Below are positions 52,980 to 64,000 of a stretch of 64,000 nt of DNA, piece by piece. The stretch's first letter is position 1; each line of letters starts with the position of its first letter. The notes beneath the pieces were generated by a model. That model ran no database searches, was not told the origin of the DNA, and worked only from the letters and a program-made list of their open reading frames with translations. The position numbers and the translations under genes are program-made. Location: NCBI GenBank assembly GCA_963662265.2, contig CAXXHA010000003.1:1-64000 (forward strand). The letters are read 5' to 3'. Source of the DNA: Spirochaetia bacterium. GTDB lineage: Bacteria; Spirochaetota; Spirochaetia; CADAEX01.

Positions 52980-54864
52980 TCTGCCGGATAAAGCTGTTTA
53001 TCTGCAGTTTTGATAATTCTTCCGACAGAAAACAGTTCCTGGAAAATGCTGAAAAAAAATATAAAGATACTCCCGGTTTTAAAAAAACATTTATTGATTT
53101 TATTTTGTTCAACAGATTGGAGAATTTACTGGGGGCGGATATTATTATTTCTGAACCGGTTAAAGAAAGGCAGCTTAAAATTCACGGTTTTCCTGACATA
53201 AGAACATTCAGTGAACTGGCTAATATCAGTGCTGTTTTTGAGAAGCTTTCTGAATGCCTGGGTAATACTGATCCGGCAGATACAGCACTTCCTCCTTCTC
53301 TTTTTTTCAGGAAAGGTGATACAGTCGCGGAAATATTCAATACAGAAAATACCAATTCTGCTGAGATATCTGATATTATTGATTTCGATTCAGACAGTTT
53401 TAATGTTGAAAGATCTGAAAACATGCAGATATGCAAGGCTAGAAAGAGCGGCTATCTAGTTTCGTCCATCGGAAGACTGTCAATTTCCTCACCAGTGGTA
53501 TTTTCGAGTGTGAGAAAACAGAAGTATATGTTTATTATTTTCCTGTCATATACAGGAAGAATGATCTTCTTGATTATATTTATAACTGGTTTAGCCAGTT
53601 TTCTGTAAAATACCCCGAAGCCCCGTTCCGTGAATTACCTGACAGAAAGTATCTTGAGAATTCTGATGCGAACAGGTTTCTGGCGATAAAAGGTAATACA
53701 GCTGTAAGCGGAAGGGATGCTTCAATTGAAAAACTATGCTGCTATACTGACAGTATTGCTGATGAAGAGGGGAGAATCGATCACAGATCTTTCAAAAGAT
53801 ACACAGTTGTAGACAAGGACCAGCTTCTTTTCAGAAAATTTAAAAAACTTGATCCTGTCCCCGGAGTCGATATTTACGGCAACCGGATTGAAGTAGATGA
53901 AAGCAGCGACAGGGAAATAAAAGCGGAAGGATTAATCAGGGAAGAATCTGAAGGGGAGTATATAAACTATTATTCTGATTCTGCAGGGCTCTTTTCTTTC
54001 GAAGAAAACCGGGCTCTGGTTGAAGAGGTGATGATAGTCGACGGAAATGTTGATTATAGGACAGGCAATATTGATTTTCCGAATAATGTTAATATCAGGG
54101 GTGATGTTGCCCCCGGGTTCAATGTCAGAAGCGGAAAAAATGTAATTGTCGAAGGCTGTCTTGATAACGGTTCATTTGTCAAATGCGGGGGGGACCTTGT
54201 TGTAAAAAACGGGATAATCGGCGAGGGGACCAGGATTGAATGTGAAGGTGATGTTTATGCTAATTATTTTTCAGAGGCAGAGCTTTACTGCAGCGGTAAG
54301 ACTGTAATTGAAAAATATATGATGGGCGGTTCAGTTTTTTCGGAAAAAATGATTGAAGTACATGGAAACGGAATAAAAAAACCTGAAATATCTTCTGTTT
54401 TCGGAGGCAGATACTACTCAATGGGGAGTATTTCAGTTCATTCGGCAGGAAATATGAACAGAAGCACTCTTCTTTGCTGCGGCTATAATCCATATCTGGA
54501 TTTTAAACACAGGGAAACAGTCCGCGCGTGTGCAGCAGTTGACAGTGAAATCTCCGGTATTTTAAACCTGCTTCGCGGCAGGTACGGTATAACTGAAAAC
54601 CCTGAAACTGCAAAAAATAAAACAGCAGATGAAAAAAGACTTATAGTGGAAAAACTGAAGAAACTGAAAGAATTGAATAAAACACGGAACAGCCTTTCAG
54701 AGCTTGGAAACAAAATACTGTCAGATATTTATTCGCATGAAAACAGCAATATATCTGTTTCAATACAAAAATATTTAATTCCTGTTGTCGAAATCCAGAT
54801 GATCAGGGATATTCAGGTTATCAGGGAAAAGAGAAGCAGTGAAATTTTTAAACTGCCTGATTAA
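52972..54864 (+). CDS. FapA/DUF342 family protein (several apparent frameshifts in the 5' half)
   Basis: PGVDIYGN and VDGNVDYRTGNIDF..NVNIRGDV beta-helix repeats, then a coiled coil. Confidence 0.8.
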
Positions 54865-54989
54865 TAATAATATTGTCAAATCATTGTTTAAACAATGTTT
54901 CATGCAGATATAAATACTTGATTATTAAGCGGATATACCTTTAATATTGTATCGATATTATACAAAAACTTATAAATAAGAGGCTGCCA

Positions 54990-56243
54990 TTGGGGACGAA
55001 GAATTCAAAGATATTGTATTTTCTTATAATGCTGATATTATTCCTGATTATTTCCGGATTGCTGATTGACGGTCCGGGAAATGCATTGAGGAGTTTTTTC
55101 AATCTTCAGGTACTGCCTGCAAGGCTTTTAAATGATTTTATTCAGACAGGAAGTATCGGGGGAACATTAATAAATGCTGCTCTTGTAGGAGCTATCGGCC
55201 TGTTCCTTACAGTAATTCTCAAGGTACAGCTGTCAGGTCCGACTTTTGCTGCAATTTTCACAATGATAGGGTTTGGATTTTTCGGAAAGACAGTTTTTAA
55301 TATTATACCTGTAATTACAGGTGTATATCTTTCTGCAAAAATTGTCAGAAAAATGCTTCGTGAATACATAATTATTGCGCTTTTCGGAACTGCACTCGGC
55401 CCTCTTGTAAGCCTTATAAGTTATGAGATTGGTTTTACAGGGATAAAGGCAGTCATTGCAGGAATAACAGGCGGAATAGCTGCAGGTTTTTTTCTTCCTG
55501 CAATTGCGGTTGCAATGCTCCATCTGCATCAGGGATATAATCTATACAACATGGGGCTGTCATGCGGGTTTTTCGCATTATTTGCAGCTTCGTTTGTAAA
55601 AGCGACAGGTTACAGGTTTGAGACTGCTGTTGAATGGTATACTGAAAAATCACTGGTCTTGCAGTTTCTTGTACCTGTAATATCTGCTGTCCTTATAACA
55701 GCAGGTTTAATATCGGGAGGGAAAAAGTGTTTAAAAGATTTCCGCGATATACAGAAACTGTCAGGACGTCTTCCTTCCGATTTCATGGATCTCTGTTCAA
55801 TAGAGGGATCTCTTTTAAACAGCGGGCTTATCGGGCTTGCAGGCTCTCTGTATATCTATATAATCGGTGGGGATTTCAACGGTCCTGTAATCGGAGGATT
55901 ATTTACAATAATGGGGTTTGCCGCATTCGGAACCCATTTTAAAAATTCATGGCCGGTTGTACTTGGTGTAATTCTCAGTTCCCTGCTGTTTTCCCAAAAC
56001 CTTTCATCTCCCGGACCTGTTCTTGCTGTAATTTTCTGTACAACTCTTGCTCCCCTTGCCGGGCAGTTTGGTATTTTTACCGGTATAACAGCAGGATTTA
56101 TACACCTTGTAATGGTGCTTCAGACAGGCAGCTGGCAGGGGGGATTAAACCTCTACAATAACGGGTTTGCAGGCGGAATTACTGCTACATTAATAGTTTC
56201 TGTTATACAATGGTACCGGATTAATAAATCTGATTATTCATAA
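54990..56243 (+). CDS. DUF1576-like duplicated membrane protein
   Basis: Repeated halves: GPTFAAIFTMIGFGFFGK / GPVIGGLFTIMGFAAFGT and QGYNLYNMG / GGLNLYNNGF. Confidence 0.82.
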   Translation: MGTKNSKILYFLIMLILFLIISGLLIDGPGNALRSFFNLQVLPARLLNDFIQTGSIGGTLINAALVGAIGLFLTVILKVQLSGPTFAAIFTMIGFGFFGKTVFNIIPVITGVYLSAKIVRKMLREYIIIALFGTALGPLVSLISYEIGFTGIKAVIAGITGGIAAGFFLPAIAVAMLHLHQGYNLYNMGLSCGFFALFAASFVKATGYRFETAVEWYTEKSLVLQFLVPVISAVLITAGLISGGKKCLKDFRDIQKLSGRLPSDFMDLCSIEGSLLNSGLIGLAGSLYIYIIGGDFNGPVIGGLFTIMGFAAFGTHFKNSWPVVLGVILSSLLFSQNLSSPGPVLAVIFCTTLAPLAGQFGIFTGITAGFIHLVMVLQTGSWQGGLNLYNNGFAGGITATLIVSVIQWYRINKSDYS

Positions 56244-56266
56244 TATAATCTATCAGGAGTTTTTCA

Positions 56267-56644
56267 TTGAAAAGAAAAGATTTTATCCTGCATCTTATCG
56301 GGGAGATTGCAAACTATATTCTGGAAGAAGATCCCAGGAGAATGGTGATTTCACTGCATCAGGAAACAGACGGGCTTCACCTCTGTATACTTGATGATAA
56401 TTCTCATTCTGATGAGGAAATAGAAAAGATGGAAAAGGCTTTAAACAGCCAGAAAAGACCGGAGCTTTCCGGGTATTACGGTGCCATGACCGGGCATGAT
56501 CTTCTCGGCTCTTCCCGGCTCAATCTTATCGGGTGGCAGATCAAGCATGCTGATGTCAGCCGGACAGACAGCGGAATAAAGATTGACCTGTGGCTGGGCG
56601 GAGACAGGTTTGACAGTAATAATTTCAATATACCGGAAAAATAA
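56267..56644 (+). CDS. Hypothetical cytoplasmic partner of the DUF1576 protein
   Basis: 125-aa ORF with RBS AGGAG and TTG start; KRPELSGYYGAMTG..LNLIG motif. Confidence 0.7.
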   Translation: MKRKDFILHLIGEIANYILEEDPRRMVISLHQETDGLHLCILDDNSHSDEEIEKMEKALNSQKRPELSGYYGAMTGHDLLGSSRLNLIGWQIKHADVSRTDSGIKIDLWLGGDRFDSNNFNIPEK

Positions 56645-56657
56645 AAATTCCCGAAGT

Positions 56658-56697
56658 AAAAAAGCTGTACCAGGGTTATTCCAGTACAGCTTTTTTT
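56658..56697. terminator. Bidirectional rho-independent terminator
   Basis: AAAAAAGCTGTAC...GTACAGCTTTTTT between convergent genes. Confidence 0.85.
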
Positions 56698-56719
56698 AAA
56701 CTTTTAAATATGAATGTTA

Positions 56720-58132
56720 TTATTTTTTTACAATAGTTTTTTCCGGAGCATCAAAAACCATTGTTGCTCCCTCAATATTGATTACATCCCCGGGTTTCAG
56801 TACCCGTTTTTTTACAGCCCTGTTGTTAACCCTTACCTCATTGCTTGAAACAAGTGTGTAGCTGTCTGTTTTTTCATCCCTTACTATTGTCGCATGTGAT
56901 TCCCTGATTGACGGAATCCCTGTTATTGTATAATCAGCAGATGCTGATCCTCCGATTACAGTATTCTGTGACGAGATAAGCATTGTCTTCTCAAGAGCCC
57001 TTCCTCTTCCCCGGCCTGAAAGCAGCTGTGTCAGTTCCGCCTGATGCGCCTCTTTTTCCAGTTTAAGGAACAGCAATACAGCAAGTATTATTACACCTGT
57101 AATTATAAGAATAAGGGCGGGAAGTGGTGAACTGAGACTTCCTGTTCCGAATATAAGTGCCGGTGAATATGACATGCTGTCATCTGCCGTATTATTGAGA
57201 TTCACATCAACTGAAGGAGCCTTTGAAAAAGTAACAGGAACCCTGACTCTTATTCTGAACTCCTCATTTATGCTCTTTCTTATATTTTCATAAACACCTG
57301 TGAGTTCCTCTTCATTTGATGCATCGAAAACTCGTCCTCCCGATGTTACAGCTATCTCAGCAAGGGGGATGTCTTTCTCTTTTGAAAAATTCACGGCATA
57401 AAGTGTTACTTCGTTTTCGGAAAGCGCTTCTGCTGCCTGACCAGGCAGGTAACTTTTATCTCCGAGTTCAGGGTGCTGTTTTCCCGATACCTTGAAGTAC
57501 GGGTAATTCTCTCCATCGGAGAGAAGTATAATTGCTTTCCTTCCGGCAGTTTTTCCCATTTCTCCTGCAGCCTTTATTATTGTGTAATAAAGCTCTGTAT
57601 ATGATTCCTCCCTGGTCGGTTTTTCAATTGTCTCAAATATATCGTTTATGCTGCCCAGGTTCACGCCTGGCTGAGCGAGCAGGGAGAAATCCCTGTTGAA
57701 AACAGCAACACCCCCAGAGTCCCTGTCCTGATCAAGTCTGGAAAAAAAGGTCCTTGCAGCCCTGACTGCAGCTGAAATCCTTTCAGTTTCCGGATCTTTA
57801 TCAGTTTTCTCATACATGCTTCCTGAATTATCCAGAAGCAGCATAAATGTAATTCCATCTGAGCTTTCACTGTTTTTTCCGGTTTCAAGCACTTTAAGCG
57901 GCTTTGACCCGGATTCATCTGTCTGTGTAAGACTGATTGATGATCCGGGATTTTTTATTTCAAGAGGTTTGCCCCCCTTATCTGTTATCCTGACATAGCA
58001 GTCGACTGTTGAGGATATAAAAAGCCTGGAAGTATCAAGCTGTGATATTGATATATTTTCCCCCCATGCAGGAGAAGATGCGATTAACATGATAAAAGCT
58101 GTTTTTAATATTGATTCAAATGTTTTTCTCAT
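56720..58132 (-). CDS. Signal peptide-VWA-TM-FHA protein
   Basis: MIDAS DNSGS...T...LSDGEN; TM PALILIITGVIILAVLLF; C-terminal FHA-like region (IG..D..I...SHA..VN..LKPGDVINI). Confidence 0.88.
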   Translation of the reverse strand: MRKTFESILKTAFIMLIASSPAWGENISISQLDTSRLFISSTVDCYVRITDKGGKPLEIKNPGSSISLTQTDESGSKPLKVLETGKNSESSDGITFMLLLDNSGSMYEKTDKDPETERISAAVRAARTFFSRLDQDRDSGGVAVFNRDFSLLAQPGVNLGSINDIFETIEKPTREESYTELYYTIIKAAGEMGKTAGRKAIILLSDGENYPYFKVSGKQHPELGDKSYLPGQAAEALSENEVTLYAVNFSKEKDIPLAEIAVTSGGRVFDASNEEELTGVYENIRKSINEEFRIRVRVPVTFSKAPSVDVNLNNTADDSMSYSPALIFGTGSLSSPLPALILIITGVIILAVLLFLKLEKEAHQAELTQLLSGRGRGRALEKTMLISSQNTVIGGSASADYTITGIPSIRESHATIVRDEKTDSYTLVSSNEVRVNNRAVKKRVLKPGDVINIEGATMVFDAPEKTIVKK

Positions 58133-58142
58133 TTCTTTCTCC

Positions 58143-59030
58143 TTAACGCGCAGGCAGGAACAGGAGTTTCACACTTCCTATCTGTATGACATCTTCATAC
58201 TGTAGACGCTTCTTACCTGTTTTTTCCTCATTTATGAAAACTTCCCCCTCAAGTGATTCAAGTACTACTTCATCCCTTGTTGAGACAAAAAGAGCATGGC
58301 TGCCTTTAAGTCCAGAGTAATCCTCAAAATCAATTGCACTTTTTTTGTCAGATCCCAGAACTGTTTTTTTCATAATCAGAACATATTCCTTGCCCCTGAC
58401 AGGGCCTGTCAGCACTTTGAGCATTCCGAAGGCTTTCACCGATTCAAACAGCGAATAGAAAAGCCCTATTGAACCTCCCATGATAAGGAAGCCTGTTCCT
58501 CTTGCTGCAAATCCGCTTTTCATGAAAGTTGTTATGAATTCAAGAACAGCTCCCCCTGCAAATCCTCCGCTTAATCCTCCTACCACTCCGATCCATACCC
58601 TGTTAGGTGACCGGCTTCTTATCCCCTCTATTGCTCCTACTACAGCTCCCAGAATCATCCATCCGACAGCCCTGCTGATCGGTAGTATCAGATTTTCCGC
58701 AGTTTTCAATGTGAATATATCAGAGCTGATAAGCGCACTCAGAAGACCCTGTATCAGAAGAACGACAAGAATCCCGGACGCTGCTCCTGTTGCAGCCCCT
58801 GCAAGGCCTCCCTGTATACTCCTCTTCCTGTCTGAAACAAGAATCCCCTCCGCTGTTCCGAAACTGAATCCGAAAAAGAGTCCAAGCAGGGCACCTTCTG
58901 AAAGGGAGAGAACCAGGTAGCCGCCTATTCTGCTTCCTGCAAGGAGCAGCAGTTCCATGCTTCCCCATGCGCAGAGTGCCCCTGCAAGCCCCAGTATTAC
59001 CATCAGTATTTTTCTTATTATTAAATTCAT
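58143..59030 (-). CDS. Gly-rich polytopic membrane protein with C-terminal FHA domain
   Basis: About six GxxxG-rich TM helices; LKVLTGPVRGKEY...SHA...FIN...LQYEDVIQIG. Confidence 0.85.
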   Translation of the reverse strand: MNLIIRKILMVILGLAGALCAWGSMELLLLAGSRIGGYLVLSLSEGALLGLFFGFSFGTAEGILVSDRKRSIQGGLAGAATGAASGILVVLLIQGLLSALISSDIFTLKTAENLILPISRAVGWMILGAVVGAIEGIRSRSPNRVWIGVVGGLSGGFAGGAVLEFITTFMKSGFAARGTGFLIMGGSIGLFYSLFESVKAFGMLKVLTGPVRGKEYVLIMKKTVLGSDKKSAIDFEDYSGLKGSHALFVSTRDEVVLESLEGEVFINEEKTGKKRLQYEDVIQIGSVKLLFLPAR

Positions 59031-59045
59031 TTGTTTTCCTTGTAA

Positions 59046-60629
59046 TTATTCCCTGTACAGTCCCGCCTGAAGAACCATAACATCCTGGCTGTTGTTAATT
59101 TTTAGTGAAAAGATTTTATCCCTGTATCCGGATGCTTTTACAAGTATTTTTATTACTCTTCCGGACATCAGTCTTTCAGCCTCTTCAATAGCCACCCATT
59201 TATTTCCCTCTCTGAGAAATATTTCCGCTTCGGAAATGATGTCATCTCCTGTGACTGCATCCCTGACATTCGGAATAAATTTCAGAGGCTGCGGATCTCT
59301 TTTGTGCCTGTAGTAAGTCACAGCTTCTCCGCCCCTGGTCTTTGATTTTTTCCATGGTTCGACAGTGAATGAGTTCCAGAAAACTTCGTTTGAAGCTGTA
59401 ATTTTCACCCTGTAGTTACCTTGCTTCAGAAAAACCGGAAGTGAAGTGACTGATGAAAATGATTCGCTGCTGTCGTTAATTAAAAAGAGAGGCATGTCAT
59501 CAACATCAGGTATTTTTTTATCATCATCAACAAAAATTGATATATTTACAGAATCTGCATCAAGAGGAGGAATATCGGCAGGTGTTTTTACAGAAAACAC
59601 AACTCTTCCGTATGTATCAGGAAACAGAAGTCCCCTGTACAGCTTGAAATTATATACAGCTGATCCTGCTGTGAGAAAAATAAGCAGAAGCACTGATGCT
59701 GCAGTTATTTTCAATCCTTTCCTCTTAAGCTTTATTCTTTCAGGGATTGTGATTTCCTTTACCTGAGCTGCCTCCGCAGTACTCTGAACAAGCTGTTCTG
59801 AGTTCCATTTCTTTATTGTTTTTTCAAGCAGCAGAATAACAGGATCGAGATTTTTGTATCTCTTTTCCCTGTTTGTTCTCATGGCTTTCCTTATGAAGCG
59901 GAGCAGGTTCCTGTCAATTCCCGGTATTATCTTGTCCGGTGAAGTATATTTACCTGTCTGTATGTTTTTCATCAGTTCGGGTGAGTAGCTGCCGGGAAAA
60001 GGTTTTTTCCCTGTGAGCATCTCATATGCCAGTACTCCAAGTGAGTATATATCTGCCCTGAGATCAACGTTGCGTGAATCTTTAAACTGTTCGGGAGGCA
60101 TATACCCCGGAGTCCCGAGTGTCATCCCGTCAATAGTAAGCCCCTCTTCCTGGCTCTCTTCCGATGAGGCAATTCCGAAGTCTACAATTTTGACAGCGCC
60201 CTCTTTTGAAACAAGTATGTTTGCAGGCTTTATATCCCTGTGAACAACTTTTTTTGAATGTGCATATTTAAGGGCTCTTGCAGTATTCAGAAGTATGTAT
60301 GCTGCAAGGCTTGAGTGGATATAGCGGTTGTTCAGTATCATCTCTTCGATTGACATTCCGTCAACATATTCCATGACAAGGTAATATGATGATCCCTCTT
60401 TAAAATGATCATACATGCTTACTATATGATCATGTCTGAAATCCATCAGTATTCTTGCTTCCCGCTTAAATCTCTCTGTTATCGCTTTCCTGCTGGAGAG
60501 GGTCAGCTTCTTGATAATTACCGGCCGCTTGAGGGTGGGGTGCTCAGCCTTGAATACTGCGCCCATTCCCCCCTTTGCAATAAGTGATTCAATCTCATAT
60601 TTTCCTATTGATTCAGGTAATTTTGCCAT
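59046..60629 (-). CDS. Hanks-type Ser/Thr protein kinase with one TM helix and an extracytoplasmic beta domain
   Basis: KGGMGAV, VIIK, RFKREA, HRDIKPAN, DFG, GTPGYMPPEQ and DIYSLG; ATG at 60629. Confidence 0.95.
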   Translation of the reverse strand: MAKLPESIGKYEIESLIAKGGMGAVFKAEHPTLKRPVIIKKLTLSSRKAITERFKREARILMDFRHDHIVSMYDHFKEGSSYYLVMEYVDGMSIEEMILNNRYIHSSLAAYILLNTARALKYAHSKKVVHRDIKPANILVSKEGAVKIVDFGIASSEESQEEGLTIDGMTLGTPGYMPPEQFKDSRNVDLRADIYSLGVLAYEMLTGKKPFPGSYSPELMKNIQTGKYTSPDKIIPGIDRNLLRFIRKAMRTNREKRYKNLDPVILLLEKTIKKWNSEQLVQSTAEAAQVKEITIPERIKLKRKGLKITAASVLLLIFLTAGSAVYNFKLYRGLLFPDTYGRVVFSVKTPADIPPLDADSVNISIFVDDDKKIPDVDDMPLFLINDSSESFSSVTSLPVFLKQGNYRVKITASNEVFWNSFTVEPWKKSKTRGGEAVTYYRHKRDPQPLKFIPNVRDAVTGDDIISEAEIFLREGNKWVAIEEAERLMSGRVIKILVKASGYRDKIFSLKINNSQDVMVLQAGLYRE

Positions 60630-60630
60630 T

Positions 60631-61653
60631 TTACTTACTCTCCGGTTGTTTTGTATTATCAATATAATGCAGACCAAAATTATTTTCAAAGCCTGATGCA
60701 GTTTTGAGGAAAACAACAGGATATCTTAGCGGATTATGTATCTGAATATATTTTCCGCCGGCCCTCAATCTGTACATTTCAGTCACAGGCCTGTGCCCGC
60801 CGTACATCATTGCCTTATTGTTGCCCGGAAAGTATTCATCGAGGTATTTTTTTACAGTACCTTGTTCTGATTCCCCGTTGTCTGTCCATGTAAGATCATA
60901 TATTATTTTTCTCTTCTCATAACAGGATATAATTTCATCTCTTGTGTAATAATTTCTCGGTTCAGCATGAGTTATGCAGCAGAATTTTCCTACAGCCATT
61001 ACAGGCAGGAACTTTTCAAAATCATAGTACCTGCTTAAGACAGATGTTCCCAGGAAACGCTTTGACCAGTTTTTCACCATTTCCCCTTCTGATGTGAATT
61101 TGGCAAATGACCGGTTGTCTTCTGTTGTCTCATTCATGATATTTTCATGATTGCCCTTTAGAAAATGAAAATTTTCACAGAAGCGTGTCTTCCAGTCCAT
61201 GACAATAAGCATCAGATTGAGACTGTCTCTCATTTCACTGTCTATTGCCTTGTGCCTGACAAATCCCCCCCTGTATTCACTGTATGCTTCAATCCATCTT
61301 GCTCTTTTCAGCCCCTCGCTGTGAAAACCGTCTCCGGCACATACTACCTGTATTTTACCCTCTTCAAGCAGCTTTAAAACAGGCTTATCCATTCCGGGCG
61401 GAATCCAGTATGCAAGTGTCCTCATGTAATCCACTCTTGCATGCAGATCAGGCACAATAACAAGAGGCAGGTCTTTAAGCTGAATGAGTCCGCCCGGATA
61501 TCCGCCCCTGTCACGGGGACGGATAAGCGGATTTTCATTATCCATTACTTTTTTAACCTGCTTAAGTGCGGCCTGCAGTTTTTCAGGTTCCGGGTATTTC
61601 CTTCTCCTGATCAGTTCCTCCAGCCGGAAATAAGCGCTGCCTGTTTTTAACAT
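60631..61653 (-). CDS. Calcineurin-like metallophosphoesterase (PPP-type phosphatase)
   Basis: PDLHA, GDGFH, KGNHEN, THAE, LTWTD and GGHRP. Confidence 0.88.
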   Translation of the reverse strand: MLKTGSAYFRLEELIRRRKYPEPEKLQAALKQVKKVMDNENPLIRPRDRGGYPGGLIQLKDLPLVIVPDLHARVDYMRTLAYWIPPGMDKPVLKLLEEGKIQVVCAGDGFHSEGLKRARWIEAYSEYRGGFVRHKAIDSEMRDSLNLMLIVMDWKTRFCENFHFLKGNHENIMNETTEDNRSFAKFTSEGEMVKNWSKRFLGTSVLSRYYDFEKFLPVMAVGKFCCITHAEPRNYYTRDEIISCYEKRKIIYDLTWTDNGESEQGTVKKYLDEYFPGNNKAMMYGGHRPVTEMYRLRAGGKYIQIHNPLRYPVVFLKTASGFENNFGLHYIDNTKQPESK

Positions 61654-61662
61654 ATCTTTTTA

Positions 61663-62196
61663 TTATTCACTTATTAATGTTTTGTTTATTTCTATAAACT
61701 CATCTGTAAGCTGATGAGTGACCTGAGTTAGAAGTTCGTTTGCTTCTTCATATTCAATTGATTCCCTGACAATTGCTATTCTGTAAACAGGGGAGCTTTT
61801 ATCAATCGGCCCGTTTTTGAATTTTACAGCCTCATCAATGCTTATATCTTCTGCAAGCTGTGAATTACTCTGCTGAAGGAAATCCGGAACATCTGTCCTG
61901 AATCCGACACTTGTATATTCTGTCTGTCTTCCGTTTTCTTCAAGCGGTCCCAGTTTTATCAGCGAGCCTGAATAGGTCATTACAAGAGCTCCTCTAGTCT
62001 CTGATGCGGAAAAAGAATCCGCAGGTTCAAGTTCATTTTCCTCTATCTGTCTGTTGAAAACCTCATCTTTTTCAAGCCATCCGCCTGCCAGTATTTCAAG
62101 AGGATCTTCAGTGATGTCTGAAAGCTGTATATTGCCTGAAAGCTGTTTCAGGTGGTTCTGGACTCTTTCCGATACCTTAGAAAAATTGTTTTCCAT
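61663..62196 (-). CDS. Hypothetical protein, stand-alone copy of an uncharacterised ~170-aa domain
   Basis: Paralogous to the N-terminus of 62604-63485; RBS GAGGGAG. Confidence 0.8.
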   Translation of the reverse strand: MENNFSKVSERVQNHLKQLSGNIQLSDITEDPLEILAGGWLEKDEVFNRQIEENELEPADSFSASETRGALVMTYSGSLIKLGPLEENGRQTEYTSVGFRTDVPDFLQQSNSQLAEDISIDEAVKFKNGPIDKSSPVYRIAIVRESIEYEEANELLTQVTHQLTDEFIEINKTLISE

Positions 62197-62273
62197 TTTA
62201 TTTCTCCCTCAGCAGATAATCTGCTTTTTTAAACTACCAATACGGTTTAAAATGTAATTACATATTTTCTGTT

Positions 62274-62415
62274 AAGCACATACTCCGGGGTATGTGCTTC
62301 TGATAGGAATGGATTGTATGTCGGGTCTGAGACTCAAAAACCATTCATATCCAAACCTTTCAATTTTTTTAAATTATGTTGCAAGCTACGGGATCAGACC
62401 CTCCTTGCGAATAAA
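62274..62415 (+). mobile_element. ~140-bp structured repeat (MITE/PATE-like), copy 2
   Basis: Shares AGGAATGGATTGTATGTCGGGTC, GACTCAAAAAC and GCAAGCT.CGGG...AGACCC...TGCGAATAAAT with the reverse complement of 23960-24095; 5' hairpin AAGCACATAC/GTATGTGCTT. Confidence 0.72.
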
Positions 62416-62603
62416 TTAATTTATAACACAGATAATACACCATTTTCCAGAAATGTCCATAAAAATCGGTGAAATTTGAAAAAAATATGATATAATCATG
62501 AAAAACGGCTTGTTTCAGGTATTTTTTTACTGTTAAGGTATGTAAAATACATGAAAAGCCAGTTAAAAAAGACCTTGAAAAAGTCTTATACAGGAGTTGT
62601 AGT

Positions 62604-63485
62604 ATGCAGATTGAAAAGCTGCCTGAAGCAGTACAGGCACATCTTTTGCATTTAATCAGGAGTTCTGCCCTCCCTGATACTCCGGAATTCCGCTCCCGTC
62701 TTGCCGGAATCTGGAACAGGAAATGCACCTTGTTTGAACAGCAGATAAATTATCTTGAAATGGAGCTTGTTGATAAAGTTGATACAAACGAATCAATGGC
62801 AATGATAATTCTCACATACTCAGGTTCTATAATAAGTATAGGCCCTCTTAAGGAAACCAGGGATGTTGAATATGCGAGTATACACTTGAGGGCGGATGTT
62901 CCGAAATCAGTTGTCGTGACTGAGACAAATATCGACGGAGAGCTTCTCCGCGACAAGCCGGTATGTTTTAAAACAGGCGCAATAAAGAAGACTTCTCCCG
63001 CCTTTATGATAGCTGTTTGCGACAGTAATCTTGATCCCTCTGTTCAGTCTGAAAGAATCAGGGAAGCAATGATTTATCTTACAAACGGATTTCTCAAGAT
63101 AAACCAGTCGATACATATTGACCGTAAGAGTGTGCCTGATCATTTTACCGCGAAATCAATGGCAAGATATATTGCGAAAAGACATGACCTGACAGGTGCT
63201 GCTGTGCAGAATATTCTGGAAGATTTTTACTATCTTATTGAAACAGGAATGCTTCTCGGGGAAACTGTTCCGCTCGGCAAAATAGGACGGCTCTCGCTGA
63301 AGAAGAAAGAGGCCCAGAAAGCCAGAATAATAAGGCACCCTGAAACAGGAGAGGAGATTACTGTCAGGTCTAAGCCTTCAATGTATGTTCCCAGGATATC
63401 GTTCAGCAGCCATATAAAAGATAAGGCAGCTTCCCTTCCTGATGACAGCAATTCAATAATCAGGATGGACTATGATGATGAATGA
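62604..63485 (+). CDS. Uncharacterised domain fused to a C-terminal HU/IHF-like DNA-binding domain
   Basis: C-terminal KSMARYIAKRHDLT...GETVPLGKIGRL...ARIIRHPETGEEITV..KP...PRISFSSHIKD; RBS AGGAG. Confidence 0.88.
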   Translation: MQIEKLPEAVQAHLLHLIRSSALPDTPEFRSRLAGIWNRKCTLFEQQINYLEMELVDKVDTNESMAMIILTYSGSIISIGPLKETRDVEYASIHLRADVPKSVVVTETNIDGELLRDKPVCFKTGAIKKTSPAFMIAVCDSNLDPSVQSERIREAMIYLTNGFLKINQSIHIDRKSVPDHFTAKSMARYIAKRHDLTGAAVQNILEDFYYLIETGMLLGETVPLGKIGRLSLKKKEAQKARIIRHPETGEEITVRSKPSMYVPRISFSSHIKDKAASLPDDSNSIIRMDYDDE

Positions 63486-63664
63486 AAATTCAGATCTTAT
63501 GCTTTTTTTGTGGAAATAAATTATACACATGCTTGATGTAAATCTGAATTCTGTTCAATTTATTTGCATGACAGATTTAATGCCCTGCGGGCACTTTGCA
63601 CCCTGCTGTGTGTTTTATCGCATTCTGTATGAATTAGATGGTATTAAAACTGCTATAAAATTAT

Positions 63665-63721
63665 TTCATCGCAGACCAGTTTAACCAGCTGCCTTCAGCA
63701 GTTGTGTTGATCTGCGATGAA
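63665..63721. terminator. Long hairpin between convergent genes
   Basis: TTCATCGCAGA / TCTGCGATGAA enclosing CAGCTGC / GCAGTTG. Confidence 0.5.
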
Positions 63722-63782
63722 TGGAATTCATATTACATCCTGCAGCATGTAAACATATTTATCAGGTGCTGAAAACAGATAA

Positions 63783-64000
63783 TTAAATAAACTCTGCAAT
63801 TTCATCAAGCTGCTTTCTCTTTTTGTCACTTTTCTTTACAAATCCTTTCGGTGTGTATCCGAGAGGTGTTATCACGAAAACCGTTTCCCCCTCTTCGAGT
63901 TCAAGCACTTTTTTAAGAATATCAGGATCGAATGCTGCAATCCAGCATGTCCCTATCTCCTCGTTTTCCGCGGCAAGAATCATATGGTCCATGGCTATTG
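63783..64000 (-). CDS. Nitroreductase family protein, C-terminal part
   Basis: DHMILAAENEEIGTCWI, TPLGY and KRK; 5' end lies outside the window. Confidence 0.88.
   Translation of the reverse strand, partial: IAMDHMILAAENEEIGTCWIAAFDPDILKKVLELEEGETVFVITPLGYTPKGFVKKSDKKRKQLDEIAEFI

Follow-up and report, generated by a model that had tools for sequence, protein, structure and literature searches.

A conserved six-gene membrane signalling cassette with a new domain family in spirochaetes

Modules that combine vWA and FHA domains with a Hanks kinase and a phosphatase are already known, and the locus reported here is a variant of this module type, whose members include the Arn network, the T6SS threonine phosphorylation pathway (T6SS-TPP), Esr and the vWA-STK-FHA-PP2C operon of Deinococcus. 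PpkA of the T6SS-TPP has a vWA ectodomain, the phosphatase of this pathway is a PP2C, and both the pathway and the TerY-P triad are characterized by a PP2C-type phosphatase and by linkage to T6SS or ter genes. The archaellum network of Sulfolobus acidocaldarius comprises the FHA protein ArnA, the vWA protein ArnB, the kinases ArnC and ArnD, and PP2A; as outlined in the abstract on it, phosphorylation and the removal of phosphate by the PPP determine the state of the FHA-vWA complex, and the network's output is gene regulation (PMC7472852). In the Esr system of oral Actinobacteria, the output protein is described in the published outline as having variable output domains, some of which bind nucleic acids (PMC13622651).

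Here we report a membrane signalling cassette of six genes that is real and conserved in spirochaetes. In the window, i.e. the whole stretch of 64,000 nucleotides that was analysed, it consists of a five-gene operon (56720-62196, minus strand), which encodes domain X, a PPP-type phosphatase, a membrane Hanks kinase, a polytopic TM-FHA protein and an exported VWA(MIDAS)-TM-FHA protein in this order, and of a divergently transcribed gene for a second X protein fused to HU (X-HU). The features are as follows:

about 56654-56703, minus strand, intrinsic terminator at the operon end (RNA fold and sequence reading)
56720-58132, minus strand, VWA-TM-FHA open reading frame, 470 aa
58143-59030, minus strand, TM-FHA open reading frame, 295 aa
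59046-60716, minus strand, longest open reading frame of the kinase (start revised to the ATG at 60629)
59046-60629, minus strand, kinase with revised start, 527 aa
60631-61653, minus strand, PPP phosphatase open reading frame, 340 aa
61663-62196, minus strand, X open reading frame, 177 aa
62197-62603, no strand assigned, divergent intergenic region with back-to-back promoter-like sites
62604-63485, plus strand, X-HU open reading frame, 293 aa, divergent from the operon

The ATG at 60629 (Met30 of the longest open reading frame) is the most likely start of the kinase because the orthologues align from Met30. With this start, the gaps along the operon are 9, 1, 15 and 10 nt, in agreement with the 1-15 nt given in an earlier note on this DNA; every element listed in that note was recovered in its place by open reading frames, Pfam matches and the terminator fold. 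The terminator hairpin (-20.5 kcal/mol, z -4.74; 0/200 shuffles equally stable) was picked up by RNA folding but not by a scan for consensus terminators; it is bidirectional in form (A-run, hairpin, T-run) and located between convergent genes. Promoter-like hexamers, which are consensus matches only, were found in the divergent region at 62459-62432 (minus strand) and 62469-62496 (plus strand), each with 10/12 positions, and a block of about 70 bp (62426-62499) is kept in the close relatives L033 and L032. By hydropathy, the kinase and the VWA protein each have one TM segment and TM-FHA has at least five; X, the phosphatase and X-HU have none, and X (177 aa) and the phosphatase (340 aa) are cytoplasmic. 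Other genes nearby in the window encode FapA and DUF1576, which are related to envelope or motility.

A literature search found no description of the cassette. The earlier note, which had not recognized it as a named system, was right in this respect, but the type of module it belongs to is not new. Compared by domain inventory alone, the Arn network has the same set of FHA, vWA, Hanks kinase and a phosphatase of the PPP rather than the PP2C type. It is archaeal, and the abstract on it does not describe ArnA and ArnB as membrane proteins (PMC7472852); the cassette, in contrast, has an exported vWA protein and two FHA proteins embedded in the membrane. The Arn network, with its soluble ZnF-FHA and vWA architecture, lacks X and the HU fusion and is not encoded in a single six-gene cassette. 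DRA0331-0334 of Deinococcus radiodurans also unite vWA, STPK, FHA and phosphatase in one operon; in the available outline, however, the PP2C is fused to FHA, X and the HU fusion are absent, and the organism belongs to another phylum. Esr shares vWA, the kinase/phosphatase pair, an FHA-containing output protein and a transcriptional output, but is outlined as requiring MoxR, a surface beta-propeller sensor and an FHA-based output (PMC13622651); the cassette has neither MoxR nor propeller, and its variable-output module is X (X, X-HU, X-Y). With the T6SS-TPP (PpkA, PppA, Fha) it has in common a membrane Hanks kinase, an opposing phosphatase, FHA and, as outlined in the source, a path that couples a cue at the envelope to a machine in the cytoplasm, although the output of that pathway is T6SS assembly (PMC3953482). 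The PPP phosphatase, and the lack of T6SS linkage and of conserved neighbours beyond the six genes in 80 loci, separate the cassette from both the T6SS-TPP and TerY-P.

X is a new, previously undescribed, well-folded domain family, which merits a family definition of its own. The predicted structure (pLDDT 90.2, pTM 0.85) consists of N-terminal helices, eight beta-strands and a long C-terminal helix. No match was found in Pfam, NCBIfam or PADLOC, no fold match in PDB or BFVD, and no sequence match in PDB; 236 relatives were recovered among 1.84 billion protein representatives. Invariant are the hairpin T74-Y-S76-G77-S78 and the residues W40, K43, F47, R90, Y94, S96, R100, P104 and S135. X occurs alone, fused to HU, fused to a C-terminal domain Y, and once behind VWA-TM, in a protein (P0100) of the architecture signal peptide-VWA-TM-X-Y, where it occupies the usual position of FHA in VWA-TM-FHA. 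All X sequences (49/49) and all X-HU sequences (49/49) have Ser at position 76, but all members of the subfamily X3 (11/11) have Asn; the X3 genes, like those for X-Y, are located away from the cassette. X3 proteins adjoin housekeeping genes instead of a kinase, and even away from any kinase they keep T74, G77, S78, R90, Y94, R100 and S135, so that the conserved site is possibly a pocket for binding rather than an acceptor site.

In X-HU, the X domain (about residues 1-175) is followed by a C-terminal domain of the HU/IHF type (about 182-274; Bac_DNA_binding, 43.5 bits against a cut-off of 22.4 in Pfam). Over residues 5-170, X and X-HU are 34% identical (E 2e-29), and the X domains of X-HU proteins form one clade. 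The beta-arm motif R-x-P-x-T-G is present, and the arm motif AQKAR..R(N/H)P.TGEEI is conserved in 60 sequences. The same genome encodes a separate canonical HU, so X-HU is predicted to bind DNA in an accessory capacity, rather than being "the" nucleoid protein as which it had been introduced in the earlier note; nor does anything speak specifically for the chromatin remodelling suggested there.

In the kinase (Pkinase, 185.7 bits in Pfam), the kinase domain is N-terminal and is joined through one TM helix (308-326) to a C-terminal ectodomain. Across 59 sequences, conservation reaches at least 95% for the G-loop, catalytic Lys, HRD and DFG; the stretch GTPGYMPPE of the activation segment is also conserved, while the ectodomain is poorly conserved. 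The canonical second motif of PPP phosphatases is GDxVDRG. The cassette phosphatase and its orthologues have GDGFH(S/A)E instead, and Metallophos reaches only 19.3 bits, below the Pfam cut-off of 21.5; the enzyme is therefore a divergent PPP member. Its assignment to this type, already made in the earlier note, proved right: 49/49 matches of its profile in PDB are PPP-family phosphatases, and the nearest folds of its model (pLDDT 87.8) are PP5, PP1, PP2A and PPZ1 (E 2.5e-11, TM 0.59/0.65), with the best 50 of 174 Foldseek matches at E<=1e-3 all being PPP. The metal-site motifs are invariant across 19 orthologues: D69xH71, G107-D108xxH111, G167-N168-H169-E170, H229 and G286-H287. Judged by the kept catalytic motifs and the PPP fold, both kinase and phosphatase look active.

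The VWA protein matches VWA_2 (41.4 bits), VWA (32.0 bits) and FHA (29.1 bits) in Pfam; its MIDAS (D101-x-S103-x-S105, T179, D206) is invariant in 17 orthologues, its one hydrophobic segment lies at about 326-358, and its signal peptide was read by eye only. TM-FHA is Gly-rich (17% Gly in residues 1-200) and has a C-terminal, YscD-like FHA domain, for which Yop-YscD_cpl (36.6 bits) scores higher than FHA (23.0 bits); the FHA scores of both membrane proteins exceed the Pfam cut-off of 20.7. The two proteins are fused into a single open reading frame in nine loci. Canonical FHA domains contact phosphothreonine through the Arg of the G-R dyad and the Ser of S-x-x-H. In the window, IGG and LGS replace IGR, and xSHA replaces SRxHA; the canonical Arg is absent in 17/17 VWA-FHA orthologues, and in 50 aligned TM-FHA sequences the Arg after the conserved Gly is not conserved. 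As both membrane FHA domains lack this residue, phosphothreonine-dependent recruitment by them is doubtful.

The gene order recurs in 80 spirochaete loci from other genomes, in which the cassette is nearly invariant, so the arrangement is more than chance. Linkage to X was found for the phosphatase in 78/80, the kinase in 77/77, TM-FHA in 61/62 and VWA in 58/59 loci, counts in which related genomes are non-independent samples; the two misses of the phosphatase are ORF-calling artefacts (overlapping ORF starts), with the gene visible at both loci. X-HU is divergent in 61/76 loci and convergent in two more, and the stop of X lies within 10 nt of the PPP start in 54/78. No conserved seventh gene was detected, the largest flanking cluster being present in 10/80 loci. 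Usually there is one copy of the cassette per genome, and the gene order is stable across families. The check set beforehand, that X and X-HU are linked to kinase, PPP, FHA and VWA genes, thus held across the 80 loci; the linkage of X with kinase and FHA genes in the earlier note applies to the cassette but not to the whole X family, as some members (X3, X-Y) are unlinked. In a sample of the phylum, X is present in 60/401 genomes (40/153 genera), compared with 87/401 for the PPP-kinase pair. All sampled genomes with a match to the VWA part (50/50) also hold X. The PPP subfamily occurs in 55/60 genomes with X (lists compared by hand) and in 32/341 genomes without it, so the enzyme pair can do without X. 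Conversely, two genomes of one genus (L140, L141) have the cassette without PPP.

The PPP-kinase pair is older and wider than X. In many spirochaetes it is not accompanied by VWA, FHA or X, and the four loci fetched from an X-poor family (f23; L135-L138) encode a triad of small canonical FHA protein, PPP and kinase. Their PPP belongs to the same subfamily (E 1e-87 to 1e-116 against the profile of the cassette PPP), and their kinase is orthologous over its full length, including the ectodomain, with the same order of PPP before kinase; the triad differs from the cassette in that VWA, TM-FHA and X-HU are absent and a canonical FHA protein of 114-123 aa, with intact GR, SRHHA and NGT motifs, takes the slot of X. 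An intermediate locus (L019) has the order X, small FHA, PPP, short kinase. We take the locus to have been built by accretion on an older gene pair of PPP phosphatase and Hanks kinase, in a series from the pair to the FHA-PPP-kinase triad, to X-FHA-PPP-kinase and to the full cassette, which offers a natural case of FHA being replaced by a different domain. Trans-envelope sensing by VWA, as envisaged earlier, is an add-on to a pair that often occurs without VWA.

With moderate confidence, we propose from these sequence comparisons that proteins of the X family are dedicated cytoplasmic clients of the kinase/PPP pair in a self-contained Ser/Thr phospho-signalling cassette, with X-HU as the DNA-binding output; accretion is part of this explanation. 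A periplasmic or envelope cue would be sensed by the variable kinase ectodomain and the exported VWA-MIDAS protein, and TM-FHA and VWA-TM-FHA would form a membrane scaffold with the kinase. Kinase and PPP would set a phosphorylation-dependent state of the X-family proteins; X-HU would translate this state into the binding of DNA and the regulation of genes, and standalone X may be a co-client or modulator. X would fill the role of the small canonical FHA protein in the triads, either as phospho-acceptor, with the exposed hairpin T74-Y-S76-G-S78 as candidate site, or as phospho-dependent reader. We prefer this explanation because of the six-gene linkage, the fusions, the replacement of FHA by X in the same slot, the active-looking enzymes, the invariant MIDAS, the conserved HU arm and the pattern of S76. 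Against it stand the site kept by X3 without a kinase, the unlinked X3 and X-Y genes, PPP without X, the two cassettes without PPP and the FHA domains without Arg. More tentatively, X could be a receiver/reader module dedicated to Hanks-type Ser/Thr kinases, a counterpart of the response-regulator receiver that possibly displaced FHA as cytoplasmic kinase partner in these spirochaetes and switches via the invariant T74-Y-S76-G-S78 hairpin. As a module, X would occur by itself, direct its output to DNA in X-HU and deliver a different one in X-Y, and have a one-protein version in VWA-TM-X-Y.

If X is not a substrate, it might be a ligand- or phosphopeptide-binding sensor or adaptor and a functional analogue of FHA, whose cluster of K43, T74, S78, R90, Y94, R100 and S135 would accommodate either an anionic ligand or a kinase segment in phosphorylated form; X would tune PPP and kinase, and X-HU would be a direct reader of the same signal. 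The polar invariant set that X3 retains beside housekeeping genes is consistent with such a role, as are the two independent contexts in which X stands in an FHA position (P0100 and the triad slot), the tight coupling of the X and PPP genes, and the loss of the canonical Arg from the FHA domains of the cassette, as though reading had been handed over to another component. We nevertheless consider it rather unlikely, as X resembles no known binding fold in PDB, BFVD or the PDB sequences, and Ser76, whose invariance is confined to the cassette-linked X and X-HU, fits an acceptor site equally well.

An anti-phage or inter-bacterial conflict system, in which kinase, FHA and vWA sense a threat and X or X-HU acts on DNA as effector, is improbable. 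In its favour are the patchy distribution of X (60/401 genomes, 40/153 genera) and the variable flanks of the cassette; vWA, kinase and FHA parts recur in threat-sensing systems as outlined in published work (PMC7159879, PMC13622651), and the kinase resembles PADLOC models such as PD-T4-6 and mad6. Those matches (PADLOC-DB v2), however, concern the generic kinase domain only, with none for the other five proteins, and Pfam and NCBIfam detected no effector domain, such as a nuclease, protease or NTPase, in the cassette. Neither a MoxR or STAND partner nor conserved adjoining defence genes were seen in the 80 loci; the usual single copy, the stable order across families and a core pair that is a common chromosomal module in related genomes also argue against defence. 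The defence role considered in the earlier note thus gained no support, and PADLOC found no described defence system. The actinobacterial FhaA/FhaB-PstP-PknB cluster is the comparison for a post-translational regulation of envelope or cell-shape processes, in which X and X-HU would be peripheral. The operon resembles this cluster in uniting FHA proteins and a kinase, all in the membrane, with a phosphatase, and the neighbouring FapA and DUF1576 genes would fit. Such a role is nevertheless very improbable: linkage to peptidoglycan or division genes was seen in none of the 80 loci, the phosphatase belongs to the PPP rather than the PP2C type, and X and X-HU are linked as tightly as the enzymes.

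The preferred reading of X-family proteins as clients is of interest because Hanks kinases in bacteria are usually pleiotropic, with outputs that are difficult to identify. In the cassette, the kinase/phosphatase pair is accompanied by an apparently private client domain without known fold, and since this domain is fused to a DNA-binding domain in a paralogue, a route from cue to DNA could be traced protein by protein. At least one cultured carrier of the cassette exists, Breznakiella homolactica RmG30 (locus L034), which makes the hypothesis testable.

The cassette, in which a gene for a protein of undescribed domain (X) heads an operon that continues with genes for a PPP-type phosphatase (PPP), a Hanks kinase and two membrane FHA proteins, and is flanked by a divergent gene for an X paralogue fused to HU (X-HU), is a real feature. 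In the window, its open reading frames were recovered at the same positions that an earlier note had assigned from the sequence alone:

56720-58132, (-) strand: VWA-TM-FHA protein, ORF of 470 aa
58143-59030, (-) strand: polytopic TM-FHA protein, ORF of 295 aa
59046-60716, (-) strand: kinase, longest ORF
60631-61653, (-) strand: PPP (metallophosphatase), ORF of 340 aa
61663-62196, (-) strand: X, ORF of 177 aa
62604-63485, (+) strand: X-HU, ORF of 293 aa

The kinase likely starts at the ATG at 60629, because the alignment of orthologous kinases begins at Met30 of the longest ORF, and with this start the gaps within the operon are 9, 1, 15 and 10 nt. The closing terminator of the earlier note corresponds to a hairpin directly 3' of the VWA stop codon, with a folding energy of -20.5 kcal/mol (z -4.74; fold matched by 0 of 200 shuffles); it is absent from the output of the consensus scanner, and Rfam gave no match within 56200-64000. 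By hydropathy, the kinase and the VWA protein each have a single transmembrane segment, TM-FHA has five or more, and PPP, X and X-HU have none; a putative signal peptide of the VWA protein was assigned by eye.

The window genome contains X only as X and X-HU, and X was present in 12 of 41 related genomes. When single genomes representing each species were scanned with the 14 closer rows of the X alignment as query, 152 relatives emerged; 80 were retained, 79 of them in records labelled spirochaete and one in a record labelled only 'uncultured bacterium'. Carriers include Breznakiella homolactica RmG30, Sediminispirochaeta, Alkalispirochaeta, Salinispira and MAGs of Treponema sp. A gene was counted at a locus only where the contig extends far enough. 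PPP directly follows X at 78 of 80 scorable loci, and the kinase (77/77), TM-FHA (61/62), VWA (58/59) and a divergent upstream X-HU (61/76) accompany it; X-HU lies convergent at the far end in two more loci (L086 and L105). The two PPP misses (L098 and L107) arose because the start of the longest ORF overlaps X, and the gene itself is there. The linkage of X to kinase, PPP, FHA, VWA and X-HU genes elsewhere, proposed as a check of its neighbourhoods, recurs across the 80 loci at these rates. No further conserved gene was found beside the cassette, the commonest flanking cluster occurring at 10 of 80 loci.

X is a new domain family. As had been read from the sequence, a paralogue of X is fused to HU: X aligns with the N-terminal part of X-HU (residues 5-170, 34% identity, E 2e-29), and X-HU matches Bac_DNA_binding in Pfam (43.5 bits), with the HU arm motif kept in 60 sequences. 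A separate canonical HU (94.5 bits) is encoded in the same genome. X has no Pfam match, and NCBIfam gave nothing specific for the cassette proteins. The model of X (pLDDT 90.2, pTM 0.85) comprises N-terminal helices, eight strands and a long C-terminal helix, and a Foldseek search against PDB and BFVD returned 0 hits at E ≤ 1e-3 (TM ≤ 0.27); weak rows suggesting likeness to a cNMP-binding domain and to lectins were taken as chance. The X profile matched nothing below E 0.1 among PDB sequences, and the best score in the ESM Atlas (0.82) was under the usable level. Against 1.84 billion representatives, the profile recruited 236 proteins at E ≤ 1e-3 (131 at E ≤ 1e-10), mostly of about 175 or 290-300 aa and all named 'hypothetical' among the matches listed. 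Invariant residues are W40, K43, F47, S76, G77, S78, R90, Y94, S96, R100, P104, S135, F167 and N171, and T74 is nearly invariant; T74-Y-S-G-S is located at the turn that joins strands 70-74 and 79-82 of the model. A complex prediction for X and the X domain of X-HU scored 0.00 (mark 0.32; own alignments of 49 rows each), a result that bears on their binding in neither direction.

The phosphatase is a divergent member of the PPP family, in agreement with the earlier assignment. Its Metallophos match in Pfam is sub-threshold, and D69xH71, G107-D108xxH111, G167-N168-H169-E170, H229 and G286-H287 are kept in 19 orthologues, the second motif being GDGFH(S/A)E. All 49 PDB matches of its profile are PPP-family phosphatases (best BSU1, 7.8e-5, with an alignment that spans only the helix and GNHE), and the folds nearest to its model (pLDDT 87.8, pTM 0.90) are PP5, PP1, PP2A and PPZ1 (E 2.5e-11, TM 0.59/0.65; 174 hits at E ≤ 1e-3). 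A homologue of 486 aa (L134:9318-10778) is enlarged by about 135 residues inserted between metal-site motifs one and two. The kinase matches Pkinase in Pfam (185.7 bits) and keeps all catalytic motifs across 59 sequences, with poor conservation of the ectodomain.

The VWA protein matches VWA_2, VWA and FHA in Pfam, and its MIDAS residues are identical across 17 orthologues; TM-FHA matches Yop-YscD_cpl and FHA. Certain residues of FHA domains contact phosphothreonine, among them the Arg of the G-R dyad. Both membrane FHA domains match the FHA profile yet are without this Arg, its position reading IGG in all 17 VWA-FHA orthologues and, in TM-FHA, LGS; the full canonical residue set is present in small FHA proteins of related genomes. 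The missing Arg makes it doubtful that the membrane FHA domains read phosphothreonine. In nine loci (L054, L082, L084, L090, L094, L096, L101, L104 and L106), TM-FHA and VWA-TM-FHA form a single ORF of 761-838 aa, a fusion that speaks for joint action of the two proteins in a single membrane complex and implies a polypeptide with many membrane crossings, two FHA domains in the cytoplasm and a VWA domain in the periplasm.

In an evenly sampled set of 401 genomes of the phylum (153 genera), X was present in 60 genomes and 40 genera, with 0/75, 0/38 and 1/50 genomes in three large families. The PPP subfamily occurs in 87 of the 401 genomes, including 27 of 50 in an X-poor spirochaete family (f23); by hand comparison of the lists, it is present in 55 of the 60 genomes with X and in 32 of the 341 without. 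The X genomes without PPP are G069, G178, G192 (86% complete), G206 (71% complete) and G224. PPP followed by the kinase alone is the simplest context (L131-L134, L139); in four f23 genomes (L135-L138) a small canonical FHA protein (114-123 aa, 80-82 bits) precedes the pair, and in L019/L063 the order is X, small FHA, PPP and a short kinase; the full cassette is the most complete context. Two genomes of one genus have X, kinase, TM-FHA and VWA-FHA without PPP (L140:4604-9172 and L141:4170-9941); the phosphatase gene is present in a third genome of that genus. Given this range of contexts, and since the kinases of the FHA-PPP-kinase triads align over their full length with that of the window, the PPP-kinase pair is the old core of the cassette.

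In two independent settings, X occupies a position that elsewhere belongs to an FHA protein. In P0100, an X-domain protein from the profile search, a signal peptide, VWA, a transmembrane segment and X, which occupies the usual FHA position, precede a C-terminal extension, Y, of about 125 aa. No relatives of P0100 were found in metagenome contigs and no full-length VWA-TM-X fusion in the 401 genomes; its VWA part has matches in 50 genomes, all 50 with X (counted from tables). X-Y proteins of about 290-340 aa are encoded apart from the cassette. In loci L126-L130 (e.g. L127:9127-10053), X carries at its C-terminus a domain of about 120 aa that has no Pfam match and is homologous to the extension of P0100, and no kinase genes lie inside the contig flanks. 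Two further proteins, P0158 and P0165, have N-terminal extensions, and the P0158 cluster includes a protein from a Candidatus Saganbacteria MAG. A distant subfamily, X3 (L112-L119, e.g. L113:9104-9634; about 170-195 aa, hairpin LT[VI]NGS), is encoded divergently from a lipoprotein-like protein of about 260 aa that belongs to no known family; next after the latter's gene comes one of pterin-binding (dihydropteroate synthase) type, and clpB is close by in several loci. A description of X3 as 'kinase-free' was rejected, as four of five such genomes hold a PPP-kinase pair elsewhere. In a quick IQ-TREE phylogeny with SH-aLRT support, the X domains of X-HU formed one clade (49 rows, support 100) nested among standalone X, X3 split off on a long branch of its own (support 100), and P0100 grouped with X-Y (support 89.9).

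Building on the observed linkage, fusion and conserved catalytic and binding sites, a periplasmic cue would be sensed by the ectodomain of the kinase and by the VWA-MIDAS protein, with TM-FHA and VWA-TM-FHA as a putative scaffold of the kinase; kinase and PPP would set the state of X-family clients, and this state would be passed to DNA binding via X-HU. X may be the phospho-acceptor, as its Ser/Thr hairpin is exposed and position 76 is Ser in all 49 X and all 49 X-HU sequences and Asn in all 11 X3 sequences. Alternatively, X may be a phospho-reader or a binding pocket, a role consistent with the retention of T74, G77, S78, R90, Y94, R100 and S135 in X3, the twofold replacement of FHA by X and the degenerate FHA domains of the cassette itself. 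The possible role in defence mentioned in the earlier note found no support; PADLOC matched only the kinase, to generic kinase models, and none of the other five cassette proteins.

The closest known system is the Arn network of Sulfolobus. The PP2A of this network is a PPP-type enzyme, and a second kinase, ArnD, also belongs to it. PMC7472852 lists the FHA protein ArnA, the vWA protein ArnB, the kinase ArnC and the phosphatase PP2A. A Deinococcus operon is described as likewise combining vWA, STPK and FHA with a phosphatase, there PP2C, and the Esr pathway (PMC13622651), vWA conflict systems (PMC7159879) and the T6SS threonine phosphorylation pathway (PMC3953482) are further relatives in kind. 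X, the HU fusion and the membrane architecture of the cassette appear in none of these five in the excerpts covered. The main text of an HU-superfamily survey (PMC5499826) has 0 occurrences of 'kinase' and 'FHA' and never mentions a phosphatase; neither the HU fusion nor the cassette is in the main texts of PMC5499826 and PMC7159879, whose supplements might list either. No published description of the cassette was found in the literature; the X domain family within it is new, and the vWA/FHA/kinase/phosphatase kind of system is already known.

Some 80-100 nt upstream of the X start, a near-perfect 26-bp palindrome (62274-62299) is complementary at 12 of 13 arm positions; it was rejected as a conserved operator, since it sits in a window-specific insertion missing from the intergenic regions of the closest relatives. 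A GTG ORF of 119 aa (62369-62728, (-) strand), which runs through the divergent intergenic region and over the start of X-HU, probably does not represent a gene. Just past the cassette (54028-56243, (+) strand) are one gene of the FapA family (136 bits) and one that matches DUF1576 (329.8 bits, two stretches), neither linked to the cassette in other genomes. An ORF of 125 aa (56267-56644, (+) strand), which has no Pfam or NCBIfam match and is not a conserved neighbour of the cassette at other loci, is convergent on the operon and shares its bidirectional-looking terminator.
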